Source: an uncultured Candidatus Saccharibacteria bacterium (lineage in GTDB: Bacteria > Patescibacteriota > Minisyncoccia > Phycocordibacterales > CAYRGE01). From it: a stretch of 64,000 bases of DNA. A program made the translations under genes and the position numbers. Under the pieces are notes generated by a model, which worked only from the letters and a program-made list of their open reading frames with translations, was not told the origin of the DNA and made no database searches. Positions 21,997-48,894 of the stretch are shown piece after piece. The stretch's first letter is position 1. Every line of letters begins with the position of its first letter. Location: NCBI GenBank assembly GCA_964612415.1, contig CAZTCT010000001.1:137949-201948 (forward strand), written 5' to 3'.

Positions 21997-22332
21997 ATGG
22001 ACCAAGATAATCAGATGCAAGAGAGTAAATTCTTTTCTAAGGGGACTCTTACATTTGTAGCTATTGCGGTCATTGCCGTTTTGGTATGTGTCTGGTATCT
22101 CCTTGGAGGTACTCCGGAGGGAGCATCGAATGAGATAGAGCAGGAGGGCGGTTTGCAAGAGGAAATGCTCAATGCGTTGCTTAAAGCAAAGGAAGGTGAA
22201 CCAGAAACACCAGCCCCCGCGGCAGAGGATATGGAGCAGGCCCTTGAGGATGCTAAAGCTGGAGAGAAAAGCATAGCTACTCCTTCAATTGAAGAAATGC
22301 AGACAGCACTTGAACAAGTAAAACAAAATTAA
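21997..22332 (+). CDS. Small single-pass membrane protein with acidic C-terminal tail, inserted between rplB and rpsS
   Basis: 111 aa with one hydrophobic helix (LTFVAIAVIAVLVCVWYLLGG) then an E/A-rich tail. A -10 TATAAT lies 8 nt before the ATG, suggesting a near-leaderless transcript. Confidence 0.4.
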   Translation: MDQDNQMQESKFFSKGTLTFVAIAVIAVLVCVWYLLGGTPEGASNEIEQEGGLQEEMLNALLKAKEGEPETPAPAAEDMEQALEDAKAGEKSIATPSIEEMQTALEQVKQN

Positions 22333-22352
22333 CTTTTTAATATAAATCCTTT

Positions 22353-22823
22353 ATGAAAATCTTTCTTCGTCGATTTGCATTTCTTGTGGTGGCGCTTGTG
22401 GCTGCTCTTGGGATCAATTATGCGTCTGCGGCGTGGACAGCGCCAACGGTAGCTCCCCCAGGGGGGAATATTTCAGTCCCGATTAATATAGGGAACGTTG
22501 CTCAAGCCAAGACAGGGACCATTAGTACTGTTGATTTCTATAGTGGGTACAGCAGCAGCAGGTATAATTTTCAGGTAAATAGTGCAGGGGTTGCTTCCAC
22601 TACAGGTGTTACCATCTATGGTAATCCAGTCGTGAAGTGGTGTTCTTCTACTAATCATTGCCTCGGCACCCCGATTCTCTGTATAAGCAACACAGCGAGC
22701 TTCAACAACAACGGCATTGCCGTAAATGTGTATGGTTCAAGTGTTAGCATTACGTATGCAAGTGGTTCATGGAGAGTTCAAGGGGGAGCAGACAACTGTG
22801 CGGGGGGCGTTCTCGTTATATAA
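22353..22823 (+). CDS. Secreted Cys-containing protein with cleavable signal peptide (A-W-T-A-P-T-x-x-P-P-G-G-N N-terminal motif)
   Basis: Signal peptide MKIFLRRFAFLVVALVAALGINYASA, then a Gly/Ser/Thr/Asn-rich mature part with four Cys. 156 aa. Confidence 0.45.
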   Translation: MKIFLRRFAFLVVALVAALGINYASAAWTAPTVAPPGGNISVPINIGNVAQAKTGTISTVDFYSGYSSSRYNFQVNSAGVASTTGVTIYGNPVVKWCSSTNHCLGTPILCISNTASFNNNGIAVNVYGSSVSITYASGSWRVQGGADNCAGGVLVI

Positions 22824-22880
22824 AGGGGTTCTTCGACAACTCCTTTTAGAGGTGTACCTAATCAAGAAAGGGTGGCCTGT

Positions 22881-22908
22881 TTGACAATCTCCCCCTTTCT
22901 GCTAGTAT
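22881..22908 (+). promoter_or_regulatory. Sigma70-like promoter TTGACA-N16-TAGTAT upstream of rpsS
   Basis: Near-consensus hexamers. A structured approximately 120-nt leader follows, including the perfect hairpin ggccac-tatat-gtggcc at 22928-22944. Confidence 0.5.
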
Positions 22909-23034
22909 TTGCTGCAACCCGTCACCCTGGGCCACTATATGTGGCCTTTGTGTTTTGAAGAGGTTTTCTGCCCCTCCGGCAGAAGGGCGCCTTAAGTACA
23001 TAAGGCGAGCGGGTTTCTTTTACGATTTTTCATC

Positions 23035-23391
23035 ATGGCACGTTCAATCTACAAGGGTCCATACGTTGACCCAAAGCTTTTAAAGAAGATAGAAGGTAAA
23101 AAGCCAGACCAAGCTGGCGTTATTCGCACGTGGGCTCGTCGCAGCCAGATCGCCCCTGAAATGGTAGGTTTTGTCTTTGGCGTACATAACGGCAAAGATC
23201 ATGTTGAGGTGCGTATCACAGAAGAAATGGTGGGGCATCGTCTTGGTGAATTTTCTCCTACAAAGAAGTTTATCCGTCACGGAGGAAAGATGCAGAAGGA
23301 ACTTGAGGTTAAGAAGAAGGAGGCGGAGATCGCTGCAGCCAAAGCAGCAAAGGCCTCAACTGACGCAGCTTCAACGAAGCCTGCTAAATAA
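23035..23391 (+). CDS. rpsS: 30S ribosomal protein S19 with Lys/Ala-rich C-terminal extension
   Basis: uS19 core (HNGKDHVEV...[18 protein letters not shown]). Confidence 0.9.
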
Positions 23392-26066: not shown

Positions 26067-26609
26067 ATGAAAACCGTCAAAGAAAAACAAACAACCTCTT
26101 TCGATACCCTCAAGGGCGCCTTTGGGTATACCAACAAGATGGCTTCTCCTCGCTTGGTGAAGGTAGTTGTTTCAAGCTCTTTTGGTCGTGCAAATGACCG
26201 AAAAGGGAAGATGGAACTTGTTGCAGATCGTCTGTCGAAGATAACAGGGCAAAAGACATCAGTGCGTCCAGCAAAGAAATCAATTGCCTCTTTCAAACTC
26301 CGACAAGGAGATCCTATTGGACTCTCTGTTACTCTCCGTGGAGATCGCATGTATGCATTCCTCGATAAGCTTTTTAACATTGCGGTCCCTCGTATGCGTG
26401 ACTTCCGTGGTTTTGATAAAAAGAGCGTTGATGCCATCGGCAATCTTTCTCTTGGCATTACCGAGCACACTATATTTCCAGAAACGGCCGACGAAGACCT
26501 TCGCGATGTTTTCGGACTTGCGGTGACCATTGTGACTACAGCAAAAACACGTGACGAGGCAGAAAAATTCTTTGAGATTATTGGCGTTCCTTTTAAAAAG
26601 GAAGGCTAA
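26067..26609 (+). CDS. rplE: 50S ribosomal protein L5
   Basis: uL5 motifs (NxMxxPRLxKV..., GxxxxxLxFPE). 180 aa. Confidence 0.95.
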   Translation: MKTVKEKQTTSFDTLKGAFGYTNKMASPRLVKVVVSSSFGRANDRKGKMELVADRLSKITGQKTSVRPAKKSIASFKLRQGDPIGLSVTLRGDRMYAFLDKLFNIAVPRMRDFRGFDKKSVDAIGNLSLGITEHTIFPETADEDLRDVFGLAVTIVTTAKTRDEAEKFFEIIGVPFKKEG

Positions 26610-26622
26610 AGCGTAAACGCGT

Positions 26623-26651
26623 TTGACAAATAGAGTGTTTTGCGCGAATAT
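26623..26651 (+). promoter_or_regulatory. Promoter-like TTGACA-N17-GAATAT immediately after rplE
   Basis: Near-consensus -35 with a weaker -10. It would launch an approximately 150-nt transcript ending at the terminator at 26777-26810. Confidence 0.3.
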
Positions 26652-26776
26652 TGGCAAGCTCGCTGCACGAAAAGCGAATATGCTTTCCTCGTTTCAATGA
26701 TCGTGGCGTTCTGGCCGAAATATTAGTAGGCGAAGTCAAAGACACCGCACTCAAACAGGAATCCTGCACCGATGCC

Positions 26777-26810
26777 CCCGGCCCCTTACAACCTTTGGGC
26801 CGGGGTTTTT
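26777..26810 (+). terminator. Strong rho-independent terminator inside the r-protein cluster (ccccggccc-loop-gggccgggg-ttttt)
   Basis: 9-bp all-GC stem with an 11-nt loop and a T5 tract. Confidence 0.6.
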
Positions 26811-26828
26811 CTTTAAAGCGGGGCGCCA

Positions 26829-26857
26829 TTGACTCGAGGACCCCTATCTGTTAGTAT
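26829..26857 (+). promoter_or_regulatory. Sigma70-like promoter TTGACT-N17-TAGTAT upstream of rpsZ
   Basis: Same consensus architecture as the promoters at 22881 and 39397. About 140 nt upstream of the S14 start. Confidence 0.5.
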
Positions 26858-27001
26858 GCCCCTACATACCCACAGAGGTATGCAGTTCTCTCTTTAATCC
26901 GCATTTCTCCTCCTGGCCTTCTCTTGCAGTAGGTAAGAAGCATAAATGCGTGATATTAAAAAGAAACTACCTTGCTCTTGTAGAAGAGCGCGTTAATTTT
27001 T

Positions 27002-27187
27002 ATGGCAAAGAAATCAACAGTCTATCGTTCAAAGAAAAAGCCCAAGTTTAAATCTCGGGTTGTAAGACGATGTTTTCGATGTGGTCGCAAGCATGGGTTT
27101 ATGAGAGATTTTGACTTGTGCCGCATTTGCTTCCGCGAACTCGCAAACGAAGGCAAGATTCCTGGTGTACGTAAATCATCTTGGTAA
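27002..27187 (+). CDS. rpsZ: 30S ribosomal protein S14, zinc-binding type Z
   Basis: 61 aa with [25 protein letters not shown], the four-Cys type of uS14. Confidence 0.9.
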
Positions 27188-27194
27188 TTTCAAT

Positions 27195-27581
27195 ATGGAC
27201 CCAATCGCAGACATGTTAATACAGATCAAGAATGGCGGCGCTGTCGGCAAAGAGAGCGTCTGTGTCCCATTCTCGAAGTTCAAGCACGAGGTTGCTAAAC
27301 TTCTTGCCAATAAAGGTTATGTGAAAGCAACTTCTATCAAGGGCAAGGCGCCAAAACGAGTCCTTGAGATTGAGCTTGCATACAACGGACGAAAGCACCG
27401 CATCTCTGGCGTTGCTCGTGTTTCAAAGCCATCACGACGCGTGTATCAAAGTTCTCGTAAGTTGTATCCAATTCGCAATGGGTATGGGATCCTCGTGCTC
27501 TCCACTCCTAAAGGAGTCCTTGCGGCTGATGATGCGCGCAAGGCACACGTAGGAGGAGAGGCACTTTTCACAATCTGGTAA
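27195..27581 (+). CDS. rpsH: 30S ribosomal protein S8
   Basis: MDPIADMLIQIKNG matches the uS8 N-terminus. The longer track ORF start at 27111 was rejected. Confidence 0.9.
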   Translation: MDPIADMLIQIKNGGAVGKESVCVPFSKFKHEVAKLLANKGYVKATSIKGKAPKRVLEIELAYNGRKHRISGVARVSKPSRRVYQSSRKLYPIRNGYGILVLSTPKGVLAADDARKAHVGGEALFTIW

Positions 27582-28487: not shown

Positions 28488-29099
28488 TTGCGTATGACAG
28501 AAGAAACAAAGAAAATTGAACAAGATACAAAAGGTGGTGCTCAGACGACTGAGAAGCCTACATCTCCTGCGCAAGGATTTGGCGGAAGAGAGCGTGGTCG
28601 TCGTGGCGGACGAGGAGGACGAGGCGGACGAGGAGGCAAAGGGCGGGACAAAGGTGGAGAGCGATACCGTCCAGAGTTTGATCAGAAGATGATCGATATC
28701 CGACGCGTAGCTCGTGTTGTTGCTGGAGGACGCCGCTTTAGCTTCCGGGTTTCTGTGGTTATCGGAAACAGGAAAGGTATGGTAGGCGTTGGTCTTGGCA
28801 AAGCGGGAGACACTTCTCTTGCCATTGATAAAGCTGTTCGCGATGCGCGAAAGAATGCGATCAACATTCAACTTACAAAAGAAATGTCTATCCCTCACAA
28901 GACTGAGGCAAAGTACGCAAGTGCTTCAGTAGAGATACGACCTGCTCCAGGAAAAGGTCTTGTCGCGGGAAGCTCTGTCCGTAGCGTACTTGATCTTGCG
29001 GGGGTAACAAACGTGACCGCAAAGATCCTGACTCGTAGTAAGAACAAGTTGAACAATGCCCGTGTTGCGGTTAAAGCACTCGAGAAGCTTAATGGATAG
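28488..29099 (+). CDS. rpsE: 30S ribosomal protein S5 with Gly/Arg-rich N-terminal extension; no rpmD (L30) follows
   Basis: uS5 core (VARVVAGGRRFSFRVSVVIGN) preceded by (GGR)n repeats. rplO starts 10 nt after its stop. Confidence 0.9.
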   Translation: MRMTEETKKIEQDTKGGAQTTEKPTSPAQGFGGRERGRRGGRGGRGGRGGKGRDKGGERYRPEFDQKMIDIRRVARVVAGGRRFSFRVSVVIGNRKGMVGVGLGKAGDTSLAIDKAVRDARKNAINIQLTKEMSIPHKTEAKYASASVEIRPAPGKGLVAGSSVRSVLDLAGVTNVTAKILTRSKNKLNNARVAVKALEKLNG

Positions 29100-29108
29100 A
29101 TAAAGCCT

Positions 29109-29564
29109 ATGAAAATTCACGATCTCAAAAGACATTCTCCTCTCAGAAAGAAAAAGCTCGTTGGCCGTGGAGGTAAAAGGGGTAAGACTTCTGGAAAGGG
29201 AACGAAAGGACAGAAAGCTCGCGCAGGACGCAAGATGCGCCCGGAATTGCGTGATCTTATCAAAAAGATTCCAAAGCTTCGCGGGTACAAGTTTGCTGGT
29301 GTGGAGAAACAACCCGTAAGTATTGTTAATGTTGCAACTCTGCAGAATGCATTTGCTGACAATGACGCAGTAAATCCGAAGACACTTATTGCGAAAAGGG
29401 CAATTTCTGTACGAAAGGGCACTACGCCAACCGTAAAAATTCTCGGTGACGGGGAACTTTCAAAGAAGCTCTCTGTCTCAGGGTGCCTCGTCTCTTCTTC
29501 TGCTCGTGATAAAATCACAAAGGCAGGAGGCAGTGTTGCGGAAATTGCGAAGGCTGCAAAATAG
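29109..29564 (+). CDS. rplO: 50S ribosomal protein L15
   Basis: GRGGKRGKTSGKGTKGQKARAG matches the uL15 N-terminus. Confidence 0.9.
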   Translation: MKIHDLKRHSPLRKKKLVGRGGKRGKTSGKGTKGQKARAGRKMRPELRDLIKKIPKLRGYKFAGVEKQPVSIVNVATLQNAFADNDAVNPKTLIAKRAISVRKGTTPTVKILGDGELSKKLSVSGCLVSSSARDKITKAGGSVAEIAKAAK

Positions 29565-35114: not shown

Positions 35115-38100
35115 ATGAGTATGGAAGGAAGGCCAAGGATGCCATCAGAAGAGACCCCAGAAGGGAGTGGAATGACTCCTGAAGATACTAATTTAGAGAA
35201 TACTGAACGTGTTGAGCCCGATCTCCACGGGGCCGCTGAAGAGATTTTAGAACAAAGGGGTGAAACTGGAATTGAAGTTCCAGTTATTTCTGTTGGAGAT
35301 GAAGCGCAAGAAGATCCAGAGGGAGGTGTTTTAGAAGGAGAAGCTCTTGATAATGCTTTGCGAGAAGCGTTGCACGGAGATGACGCAAGGTTTGAGCAGA
35401 ATGTTCAGATAGAAACAGGTGAAATTGCTCCGGTTCAAGGAGAGCATAACGACAAGTATGTACTTCATGAAGAAAATGGAGCTCGTGTCTGGCGTAAAAA
35501 TAACGGAGATGAATCTACTCCAATACAAGAGGGGACTCCTGATGCGCAAAACGGATCAGAAGCACTTATAAACGACGGAGCGCTTGAAGGACAAGAAGAA
35601 GGTGAGGGTACACCTATTGATGCGGATGCCGAAAAGGCACAAGAACCGGCGGTGAGCAAGGAAGAAGTCTCAGCTACCCCAGAAAGTATAGAACGAGAAC
35701 CAGGGTCTCTCGCTGTTGCGCTTGAAGAGACCGCACAGAGTGTTGTTGCAGAAAAACAAGAACGGATGGAGGAGGCCCTCTCTCCTGAACAAATAGCGAC
35801 ACCAGAATATGCCAAGAAGGCAATTGATCACGAACTTGCTCGTTTAGGTATAAACCCGGAGGACATTGCAAAAGACGAAGCTTTCAAAGAATTTAACGAA
35901 CTCTCAGATGGACAGAAGCTTCTTGTTGCGCGCGATCTCAATAGATTTGCTTTCTCTGAATCAAAAATAAAAGCGCACGAGGAATTTAATAAGAGAAACC
36001 AGGAAGAAGGTGTTTTGAATGTAAAGAGAATTGCCCGCAATGTATTCCGCAACGTTAATATCGCTTCGTACCGGAAAGCGGAACTTAAAAAAGCGATGGC
36101 AGGGGGTGTGGGTATGCACGGAGAGACACTCAAAGTTCTTGCAGAAAAAGCCAAGATTGGTCCTGAGGTAGAGATTGACTCAGCGGGGAATCTCAATGTT
36201 CAGTATGCAAAACTTGAAGGCCTTTCTGCTGAAGAACAGAAGGTTGTGAGATTTTACAACAAAGTTGCAGGTAATTATGGCCGAACTCCTGCTGAGTGGG
36301 GCAACAAGAGCGCAACGAATGAGCAGAAAATGGAGTATTGGGCGAATAAAGAGGAGTACAACAGGGCAAGAAAAGAACTCTTGGCCCTTAAAGAGGCGAA
36401 GAGTTCTTCTGAAGATGCCATGCAGTATGTGAATAGTCTTGATGCTCTTGTAACACAGGACCAGTTTTTAAATACAGTCTCAGGAGAGAAACTTGAAGAA
36501 TCAATGCAAAGAGCTGCGACAGGGAGTGCTCTATGGCAAGGGTGGAAGGAAACGATTACTGAGAGAGGCATGTATGCCGCAGTTGGTGCGGGGACACGCT
36601 TTGCTGTTGTAGGTGCATTGGGGATTGCTGCTGTCCCAGTGATGGGTGCTACAGTTGCGCCTGTTGCCGTAGGAGCTATTGCTGCTTCTGCGCTTGTGGG
36701 ACGATGGATTGGGCGAAGACGCATGAGACAAACTCTAGATGAAAAAGAGATGCTTCGCCGCCATGGAGACAAGGCGTCTGAAGAGCAGAAAAATGTCTGG
36801 AAGGACAAACTTGCAAAGACAACTCGTGCAACAGACGGAGGGGATATCGAAAGTTATAAAAAGGGAGCGAATGAGCGTGGCAAAATCTTGGAGAAGCGCT
36901 ATGCAGAGCGGGGTATTACCGTTTCTGCAGAAGCGCTTGATGACAAGCTTGGGTTAGCTTTTGCGCAATTTGAGAAGGAGGAAGATCCTAAAAAGCGCAG
37001 TAAGGCGCTGGTATCTTTACGTGCACGTATTGGCTATACACAAGACAAGATCGATAAAGGGGAGGTTAACTTTGGCAATGGCGTAGACCAGCTTAAAAAT
37101 CAACTTGACCTCATTCAGGGGCTCTCAAGAGCACGCGCTCACTCAGTGATAGAAGACCCTGACGTTAAAAAAGAACTTGACGAGAAGATGGGCGAGCTTA
37201 CGAAGTATCAGGGGCACATGCGCAGCCGAGTTGAACAAGCCGAGAAGAAGAGGATCAACGCTGCGGGGAGGACAGGGGCTCTTATTGCAGCTACATTTAC
37301 TGGTGCATCTTATGCAATTACAGACTTTGTTATGTCTGGGAAAGGCGCTAACCTTGCAGATAATGCAAAGGAGTTTGCTGGGCATTTGAAAGCAAAACTT
37401 CCATATGGGCTTGGAGACGAAGAGCTCCACCGAGAGCTTGAGAGTTCAGCTGCTCGAGTCTATAACCCAGGTTCAGAGAATGGGAGCAATCTTTGGAATA
37501 TGATAGAACACGATCTTCGGGGAGATCTCAAAGGACTTGAGGGACATGAACGCGATGCCGTTATCATGGCTGGCTTGAATAAGTTTCGTGAACTTACCCC
37601 AGAGCAACTCAAAGAGATTGGTTTTTCATCAGCAAGTGGAGAAAATAATGTTGAGAATATATTAAAACTTGTGAGACCTACAGATCGCATTAATTTTTCG
37701 CGAGTTTACAATACAGCAGATCTGCACAATATTCTTGGACGTATGCACGCAGTGGCTCTTGAGAAGGGGGAAATGCCAGTCCCGGCGACAGGTTCTTCTG
37801 TTGTGGCAGAGAGTGCCACTTCATCTGGTACGCCAACTGCCCCAGCTCATGTGCCTAGTGGGGGGAAGGCGCCTTCTGTGAGCGAACTACCTTCGTCTGC
37901 AGGCAAAAGCGTACCACCTGAAGCTGCTGACATGCCACTTACGACACAGCGCGCTATTCCATCAGAGCCAAAAGGGAATGGTTCTATATTTAGTACTGAC
38001 GAGATTGAAAAGTATCGAGGATCAGGCGGCGGGAAAGTTGAACAAGTTGCGTATACTCCTCGGACTCCACAGGAAATCGTCAAAATCCCATCAAGTGATT

Positions 38101-45780: not shown

Positions 45781-45884
45781 CGGAGACTCCTCCTCTAGAA
45801 GGTGACTTCTGGGGGCACTCTAAACAATGGTGATATTGTTGTCAAAAACAAAAACGCCCACGAAAGGCGTTTTGTTGTTGGCTG

Positions 45885-46277
45885 TGGAGATGGGGGGATT
45901 CGAACCCCCGTGCAAAAGTGTTCCTCGAACGGTTCTACAAAGCGTAGTTTGTTTCATTTGTTTAGATGCAATGAGTAGAAAACAAACAAAATCTTCATTA
46001 CATCGATCCTCTACATTTCAAAATATTGTCGAGGCGAGCAATATTTCTACATCTGAAGATATAACACCTGTTTGATCATGTCAGATTCACAATCAGCAGA
46101 TGGCTACGCGCTATTTAGGCGTATGCAAACGCGAAGTCGTTCTTCGTAAAGTACGGAGAGACGAGCGCCCGCGCTTTTTGTGCGATATTTGCACTTTTGT
46201 TTGGCATGTTTTTCGAGAGTTGCCATCTCGGCTTTGCGCATAAGAGGGGAGTACCCTTGTCGATGCCTAGCATCCCC
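45885..46277 (-). ncRNA. ssrA: Transfer-messenger RNA (tmRNA, SsrA); inferred tag ending ...KNDFAFAYA-stop
   Basis: The minus-strand 5' end GGGGAUGCUAGGCAUCGACAAGGG parallels the E. coli tmRNA 5' GGGGCUGAUUCUGGAUUCGACGGG. The 3' end is ...GGGGGUUCGAAUCCCCCCAUCUCCA, a tRNA-like T-arm plus acceptor. It sits immediately downstream of smpB. An internal ORF ends GCA-UAC-GCC-UAA. Confidence 0.7.
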
Positions 46278-48818: not shown

Positions 48819-48894
48819 TGGTCCGCCTGGCAGGACTCGAACCTACAACCACGGAGATATAAGCTCCGTGCTCTAACCATTGAGCTACAGGCGG
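48819..48894 (-). tRNA. tRNA with anticodon UAU (tRNA-Ile, AUA-reading); CCA encoded
   Basis: Cloverleaf: CCGCCUG-UA-GCUC-AAUGGUUA-GAGC-A-CGGAG-CUUAUAU-CUCCG-UGGUU-GUAGG-UUCGAGU-CCUGC-CAGGCGG-A-CCA. 7/4/5/5-bp stems, U33, A37. Confidence 0.7.

Follow-up and report, generated by a model that had tools for sequence, protein, structure and literature searches.

In Escherichia coli, the spc operator is a messenger RNA (mRNA) mimic of helix 21 of the 16S ribosomal RNA (rRNA). It overlaps the start of rplE, the gene encoding ribosomal protein L5, and is documented only in Gammaproteobacteria; according to a 2024 review, spc regulation outside the Gammaproteobacteria remains unknown. Structured, lineage-restricted 5' leaders of ribosomal protein genes that are backed by covariation have been described for L1, L10, L20, S15 and S6:S18, and candidates of the same kind were presented by Eckert and Weinberg in 2020. 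None of the described leaders concerns S14 or S8, and the candidates of the 2020 survey include no S14/S8 leader. In this study, we describe a leader RNA encoded between rplE and rpsZ (also rpsN), the gene for S14, in an uncultured bacterium of the candidate phyla radiation (CPR). The DNA analysed is a stretch of 64,000 nucleotides (nt) of contig CAZTCT010000001.1, hereafter called the window, and all positions are counted from its first letter. The leader resembles the known ribosomal protein leaders in being structured, restricted to a lineage and backed by covariation. It belongs to a previously undescribed, strongly covarying RNA family of about 70 members and, judged by analogy, is probably an rRNA-mimic ribosomal protein leader for S8.

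The comparison with the S8 site is based on published work (PMC4176348, PMC3616713, PMC10931766) and on the sequence of E. coli 16S rRNA, which reads A595 A596 G597 U598 C599 on the 5' strand and G639 A640 U641 A642 C643 U644 on the 3' strand. Two base triples characterise the site in 16S rRNA, namely (G597-C643)-U641 and A595-(A596-U644), the latter being G-(C-G) in Thermus (PMC4176348). The 596-644 pair varies between rRNAs and is A-U in E. coli and C-G in Thermus (PMC4176348). In the E. coli spc operator, a bulged C5 stands beside the G639 equivalent and is reported to lower the affinity of the mRNA relative to that of the rRNA (PMC3616713).

Two sets of relatives were compared with the window. 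The first consists of 80 species-representative genomes in which the genes of the cluster were placed by tblastn, the second of 81 further loci from metagenomes that are independent of the first. The lineage is an isolated one. The nearest genomes are metagenome-assembled genomes of Yonathbacteria, Nomurabacteria and Paceibacteria with an L5 identity of at most 68%; a single L5 more than 70% identical (79%) was found among 5.8 billion proteins, and the best match of a metagenome scan reached 67%. Taken together with the lack of an L30 gene between S5 and L15, these nearest genomes assign the window to the Paceibacteria (CPR). Three short Logan contigs have the same sequence as the window DNA and are hence uninformative.

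When the 170 nt upstream of S14 were compared across the relatives, a shared architecture of promoter and leader became apparent. We aligned 33 copies of the leader motif (alignment A2) and built the covariance model R1 on them. Read from the outside inwards, the aligned hairpin consists of an outer stem (P0), a core R-A-U-C / G-A-U-A-U-Y, a stem of 5 bp (P1), an internal loop UUUCUCC / AAGAAAAWA, a second stem CUUAAGG / CUUUAAG (P2) and a variable tip. In the window, the motif occupies positions 26890-26963 of the forward strand (about 26884-26970 with P0), and its distal module, which is defined by invariant columns of the alignment and comprises the internal loop UUUCUC / (C)AUAAA, stem P2 and the variable tip, extends from 26904 to 26946. 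The window copy scores 54.2 bits against R1 (E = 4.6e-12), is the single match in the 64 kb and folds well above chance (z = -3.14). Upstream of it, at the predicted transcript start, the minimum-free-energy fold contains a small 5' hairpin (ACAUACC / GGUAUGC, 26865-26883). Across the family, the motif ends at a median distance of 22 nt before the S14 AUG.

The structure is well supported by covariation. RNAalifold found compensatory changes in 12 of 17 pairs. In a 19-pair structure, to which two core pairs were added, 96.0% of the cells pair, and the covariation score is 0.517 as compared to at most 0.158 for slid partners; none of 500 shuffles reached 0.517. Compensatory changes occur in 13-14 of these 19 pairs, with P2 contributing 7-8 of 10. 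The copies that had no part in building the model behave in the same way, with 95.7% of cells pairing and a covariation of 0.572 versus at most 0.143 for slid partners. A search of 482 kb with R1 yielded 43 full copies, including ten loci outside the seed, and a separate search of 351 kb from loci that had not entered the model yielded 26 full and two truncated copies. All of these matches, about 70 copies, lie between L5 and S14; elsewhere only weak reverse-strand echoes at the same sites were found. Rfam 15 holds no family for the gap of the window (E up to 10), for 20 related loci (at the gathering threshold) or for the leader of locus L033 (E up to 10), and no comparable leader of S14 or S8 appears in the literature that was searched. 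The existence of the leader RNA family is nearly certain.

The base of the leader hairpin resembles the S8 site. In the window, the 5' strand of the core, A-A-U-C at 26896-26899 (aligned as in A2), corresponds to A596-G597-U598-C599, and the 3' strand at 26951-26957, also on the forward strand, consists of a bulged U26951 followed by G-A-[U-A]-U-U, which corresponds to G639-A640-[U641-A642]-C643-U644. The geometry is that of the asymmetric loop of helix 21. Both the C-G and the U-A pair at the 599-639 and 598-640 equivalents are invariant, and all 70 copies have A as the A642 equivalent. The bulged dinucleotide is C-A in three copies and U-A in the other 67. At the 597-643 equivalent the pair is A-U throughout (33/33 and 28/28 in the alignments counted), so that the triple corresponding to 597/643/641 reads (A-U)-C in the three copies with a C-A bulge and (A-U)-U in the remaining 67. 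The pair equivalent to 596-644 covaries, being G-C in 39 and A-U in 29 of the 70 copies. Outside the core, P0 is more stable than shuffled sequence (z < -1) in 33 of 42 copies. At the junction of P0 and core at least one nucleotide is unpaired on the 5' side in 32 of 42, whereas 29 of 42 have no unpaired nucleotide on the 3' side; the unpaired bases on the 5' strand, one to three in most copies, together with the outer helix match the bulged position 595. Directly 5' of the G639 equivalent there is a single bulged base, which is A in 48 copies, C in 16, U in five and G in one.

Four relatives that lack the motif carry an exact canonical S8 site upstream of S14, of the form (outer stem)-N-AGUC-stem-GAUACU-(outer stem). 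These sites are found at L057:4034-4069, L069:3252-3287, L133:3694-3727 and, about 110 nt before S14, in L078; the one in L057 reads GGGU-A-AGUC-ACC...GGU-GAUACU-ACCC. All four have G-C and U in the triple equivalent to 597/643/641. The sites of L057 and L133 end 19-20 nt before the AUG, which is also the spacing of the motif. Only five sites in 1.67 Mb match a strict descriptor of the canonical site. A broader S8-like descriptor gives 47 matches in the same 1.67 Mb, 27 of which fall in the 260 nt before S14, a region estimated at less than 2% of the sequence; most of these upstream matches belong to the motif family by construction. A loose descriptor proved too permissive (445 matches), and the stricter ones were used instead.

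With the E. coli spc operator the leader shares the asymmetric internal loop, that is the C-G and U-A pairs, a bulged N-A with invariant A, a Watson-Crick pair, a covarying pair and a bulge on the opposite strand. Common to both are also the extra bulged base directly 5' of the G639 equivalent (C5 in E. coli) and the location in the same gene cluster, with S8 encoded downstream in the unit concerned. The differences are considerable. The leader lies in the 5' untranslated region (UTR) of S14 behind an internal promoter, whereas the E. coli operator overlaps the L5 start codon. Its strands follow the order of the rRNA (596-599 first), whereas in E. coli the 639-644 strand comes first and a long-range pairing closes the structure. 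The leader has A-U in place of G-C at the 597-643 equivalent, has a further conserved internal loop as well as a distal hairpin that varies, is found in a CPR lineage, shows no sequence homology to the operator and matches no Rfam family. Due to its position in the S14 5' UTR and its opposite strand order, we regard it as an analogue and not as a homologous member of the spc leader family of Fu et al. 2013. As compared to helix 21 of 16S rRNA (nt 588-604 / 634-651), the core geometry and the invariant A642 equivalent are the same, six base pairs separate the core from the next internal loop in both, and the hairpin is likewise closed on the 600/638 side. The leader differs from helix 21 in the A-U pair at the 597-643 equivalent, in a bulge of 0-4 nt (mostly 1-2) replacing A595, in the bulged base beside the G639 equivalent and in its distal loop.

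Concerning the genomic setting, the ORF calls place the stop codon of rplE (26067-26609, forward strand) at 26609 and the start of rpsZ (27002-27187, forward strand) at 27002. The intergenic region thus measures 392 bp (26610-27001), in agreement with the approximately 390 bp stated in an earlier note on this DNA. The same note had listed a promoter-like site TTGACA-N17-GAATAT after the rplE stop, a strong intrinsic terminator with a 9-bp all-G+C stem and five T, and a second promoter TTGACT-N17-TAGTAT, followed by a leader of 140 nt before rpsZ. All three elements are present, at 26623-26651, 26776-26810 and 26829-26857, the last with TG ahead of its -10 element. The leader, which the note named only in passing, holds the conserved RNA and is the most interesting element of the region. 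L5, recognised from its ORF and translation and by an exact-sequence look-up (Pfam Ribosomal_L5, L5_C), closes the upstream unit. The downstream unit opens with the 61-amino-acid (aa) zinc-finger C+ form of S14, identified as an ORF, and continues with rpsH (27195-27581, forward strand), encoding S8, which starts 7 nt past the S14 stop.

This gap is a lineage-wide break of the ribosomal protein cluster that is typical of Paceibacteria (CPR). Across 109 relatives with both genes, the L5-S14 distance ranges from 3 to 2229 bp and the junction is almost always open. In the first set, none of 60 loci falls below 108 bp; the median is 506 bp and the longest gap 2229 bp. In 20 more, S14 was not found within 2.5 kb. 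In the second set the distance is 3-2181 bp with a median of 276. All remaining junctions from S3 to S5 in the first set have medians of about 9-19 bp, with a negative estimate (overlap) for L18-S5; by this comparison, the L5-S14 gap exceeds what chance would produce. S14 and S8 are adjacent in every relative examined, with a median gap of 13 bp. The tight ancestral L5-S14 junction has been kept in few lineages (L092, L111). Within the gaps of loci L005-L083 we found 107 ORFs falling into 88 clusters (e.g. L020:3101-5330 and L023:3124-4639). Pfam assigns type IV pilin-like N-termini to seven of the inserted ORFs, NUDIX to three, and peptide deformylase, MazF/PemK toxins and adenylate kinase to two each, besides many singletons; the pilin-like ORFs are paired with a small membrane protein. 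Given this heterogeneity of inserted genes, the L5-S14 junction behaves as an insertion hot spot.

The terminator of the window (26776-26810, forward strand) has the stem CCCCGGCCC (26776-26784) / GGGCCGGGG (26797-26805), a loop of 12 nt and U5 (26806-26810), with a predicted stability of -20.7 kcal/mol. It has the G+C-rich hairpin and the immediately following U-run of an intrinsic terminator, and its loop is longer than usual; a simple terminator scan limited to loops of up to 8 nt missed it. About 17 of 43 relatives have a terminator ahead of the S14 promoter (16 found by script and one that the script missed), and the terminator is therefore an optional part. In many relatives with a short gap, the S14 promoter directly follows the L5 stop. 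In the window, the promoter of the unit S14-S8-L6 and onwards consists of TTGACT (26829-26834), a spacer of 17 nt with TG at 26849-26850, and TAGTAT (26852-26857), on the forward strand. A TTGAC-N16-18 promoter with a TAnnnT -10 element (mostly TGCTAGTAT) is found in 42 of the 43 motif-bearing relatives, with 11-36 nt (median 18) between its end and the motif. The earlier note had proposed that the region uncouples an upstream half (rpsS to rplE) from a downstream half (rpsZ to map). In outline this was right, since the break is lineage-wide and nearly all motif-bearing relatives have a counterpart of the second promoter.

A second class of S14 leaders occurs in nine of the related loci (L029, L037, L056, L060, L065, L068, L076, L079 and L081). 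It occupies roughly the last 60 nt before S14, consists of a promoter, a short G+C hairpin and a U-run a few nt before the AUG, and is a candidate leader terminator or 5' stabiliser. Several loci without the conserved motif have this arrangement. The window (26973-27001) and locus L084 combine the conserved motif with such a hairpin and U-run, and relatives with longer spacing likewise carry extra hairpins. In the window this additional hairpin, GCUCUU / AAGAGC at 26973-26990 on the forward strand, is followed by UUAAUUUUU directly before the AUG and lies outside the conserved motif.

On balance we favour, with moderate confidence, that the leader is an S8 operator of the unit beginning with S14, S8 and L6. 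S8 is assigned by resemblance. Whereas the break, the promoter, the RNA structure and its exclusive position are shown by the data, we infer that S8 is the ligand and that translation is repressed, from the core geometry, from the canonical sites in relatives and from the fact that S8 is encoded within the unit that carries the site, rpsH being its second gene. According to the proposed mechanism, the S19-to-L5 transcript would end at the terminator, and the conserved sigma-70-type promoter would begin a new transcript encoding S14, S8, L6, L18, S5, L15, SecY and further products. The base of the leader hairpin (26884-26970) would imitate the S8 site of helix 21, and S8 in excess over free 16S rRNA would bind to it. 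Counted from the S14 AUG, the site lies about 25-45 nt upstream; its last core base is about 28 nt away at the median and 44 nt away in the window. Binding of S8 would stabilise the outer helix P0 beside the ribosome-loading region and block 30S loading on S14, and translational coupling would spread the block to S8 and the genes downstream.

Several points weigh against this assignment. The likeness to helix 21 was judged with E. coli 16S rRNA as the reference. The motif is missing from roughly half of the S14-bearing loci (e.g. from 18 of 60 in the first set). At the 597-643 equivalent it has A-U, as opposed to G-C in the rRNA and in the E. coli operator; the 641 equivalent is mostly U. The S8 of the window has a tyrosine (RRVYQ) that presumably corresponds to the E. 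coli residue hydrogen-bonding G597. With the A-U pair in the mRNA and the tyrosine kept in the protein, the mRNA site would lose this contact, which would be consistent with a deliberately weaker operator. An alternative register, in which the A pairs with the 641 equivalent and an A-U bulge follows, is energetically equivalent in the window and is disfavoured only by the three copies with C at the 641 equivalent. Finally, the distal loop matches the core in conservation. Nothing in helix 21 corresponds to it, the four canonical leaders lack it, and it may serve a ligand other than S8. Candidate mimicry by the distal loop was considered for helix 25, for the 16S 3' tail (GAUCACCUCCUU) and for 5S rRNA; no convincing match was noted, the rRNA sequence read being that of E. 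coli helix 21.

The invariance of the distal loop, its lack of a counterpart in E. coli helix 21 and the departure of the core from the canonical 597-643 pair would also fit a site for another product of the unit (S14, L6, L18, S5 or L15) or for two proteins, in which the distal loop is the real element and the likeness to the S8 site coincidental. We consider this unlikely. A plain canonical S8 site without a distal loop occupies the same position in four relatives, and in E. coli it is S8 that is known to control these genes; none of the other proteins of the S14 unit is known as an established regulator of it. A further reading, which we hold to be rather improbable, is a two-module regulatory RNA specific to Paceibacteria, in which the S8 operator is joined, exactly six base pairs away, by a second invariant loop that would act either as a binding site for another ribosomal protein or as a sensor of pH or some other signal. 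The distal loop UUUCUCC / AAGAAAA contains two conserved C-A oppositions. The hairpin and U-run just before the AUG in the window and in some relatives would fit yet another function, that of a transcription attenuator, riboswitch or thermosensor with the 26973-26990 hairpin and U-run as a regulated terminator. We regard this as very improbable, since the motif mostly ends 18-22 nt before the AUG and leaves no space for a terminator, so that the extra hairpin is not part of the conserved unit. In addition, the motif appears to be a plain hairpin with interruptions, lacking multi-stem junctions and any obvious pocket for a ligand, and it is found exclusively upstream of ribosomal protein genes. 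The S8 operator remains the reading that we prefer.

The first half of the gap presents a different picture. Here the earlier note had seen an independent small RNA (sRNA) gene of about 150 nt, reaching from the first promoter-like site to the terminator, with some 130 nt devoid of a meaningful ORF. As to the latter, two mechanical ORFs do exist, one of 67 aa with a TTG start (26651-26854, forward strand) and one of 78 aa (26593-26829, reverse strand). Both were rejected as spurious, because they extend across the terminator, match no Pfam family and show no blastx similarity to ORFs in the L5-S14 gaps of relatives. No tRNA or transfer-messenger RNA (tmRNA) gene was found within the rplE-rpsZ gap. 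The first promoter-like site itself, TTGACA (26623-26628)-N17-GAATAT (26646-26651) on the forward strand, has no TG extension and no equivalent in relatives. In the promoter scan it scores 10/12, as TTGACA-N18-AATATT. The surrounding 16 kb contain 14 promoter-like matches as compared to 16.9 expected from shuffles, and in view of this lack of enrichment the first site carries no significance by itself. Just past the rplE stop (26615-26624) there is a perfect 10-bp palindrome, AAACGCGTTT, which overlaps the -35 element of this first site.

An sRNA gene at about 26659-26810 would account for the perfect -35 and acceptable -10 elements directly past rplE and for the strong terminator 150 nt downstream, and two other sites scoring at least 10/12 in the 16-kb scan, one before S19 and one before a gene at 35115, look like real promoters. 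Nevertheless, we consider such a gene quite improbable. The proposed body of the sRNA (26659-26775) shows no excess of structure over shuffled sequence (z = +0.28), and the first half of the gap has no similarity in 160 related loci, the blastn and nhmmer matches of the gap falling in its second half only. The Rfam scan that the earlier note had suggested returned no family for the gap (E up to 10); the sole match, anti-hemB, is the terminator hairpin at 16.6 bits, below the gathering score of 49.5. The TG extension seen in the clear promoters of the lineage is absent from the first site, and the terminator is already accounted for as the end of the S19-L5 unit. Sequences similar enough for a proper test of the sRNA are identical copies from the same strain only, and the sRNA is accordingly unsupported rather than refuted.

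The 165 nt preceding the terminator, including the spacer of the proposed sRNA (26652-26775, forward strand), are not conserved and are best read as a 3' UTR or as the remnant of a lost inserted cassette. In the latter case, 26610-26810 would be the relic of an accessory cassette from the hot spot, in which promoter and terminator were kept and the coding part was lost. This is possible, though doubtful. Diverse inserts occur at the same junction in relatives, many of them ending with a terminator just ahead of the S14 promoter, and a TTGAC-type promoter within 160 nt past L5 is present in 7 of 47 long-gap relatives as compared to 3 of 1441 background windows. On the other hand, there is no recognisable pseudogene trace, the promoter-like site taken alone is within chance expectation, and a plain 3' UTR fits the data equally well.

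Elsewhere in the window, the cluster is interrupted a second time at 21997-23034, between L2 (21055-21912) and S19 (23035-23391). This interval contains two non-ribosomal ORFs of 111 aa and 156 aa, the latter with a signal-peptide-like N-terminus, neither with a significant Pfam match. Upstream of S19 there is a strong promoter, TTGACA-N16-(TG)TAGTAT, at 22881-22908, followed by a G+C hairpin with a U-run at 22929-22957; the relative with the 79% identical L5 has an ORF of 169 aa ahead of S19. The S5-L15 junction (29099-29109) is without an L30 gene. Loss of L30 is known for CPR bacteria and fits its absence between S5 and L15. A gene for tRNA-Ile with the anticodon UAU is encoded on the reverse strand (48819-48894); this tRNA is uncommon in bacteria, which usually decode AUA by a lysidine-modified CAU tRNA. 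A tmRNA gene lies at 45882-46277, also on the reverse strand (121.8 bits).

The leader adds a well-supported RNA family that is absent from Rfam, and the L5-S14 insertion hot spot in these reduced genomes bears on annotation and on concatenated ribosomal protein phylogenies. If the leader is an S8 operator, the same protein-RNA mimicry would have been re-invented elsewhere in the cluster, before S14 and not on L5, in a deeply divergent uncultivated lineage. The variants of the site, canonical G-C, A-U and bulged, would then form a natural series for studying what S8 tolerates. Should the two-module reading be true, the unit from S14 to SecY would be under combinatorial feedback, which would have originated in an integration hot spot between L5 and S14 that split the ancestral spc operon, and it would be the first autoregulatory circuit described in CPR bacteria.

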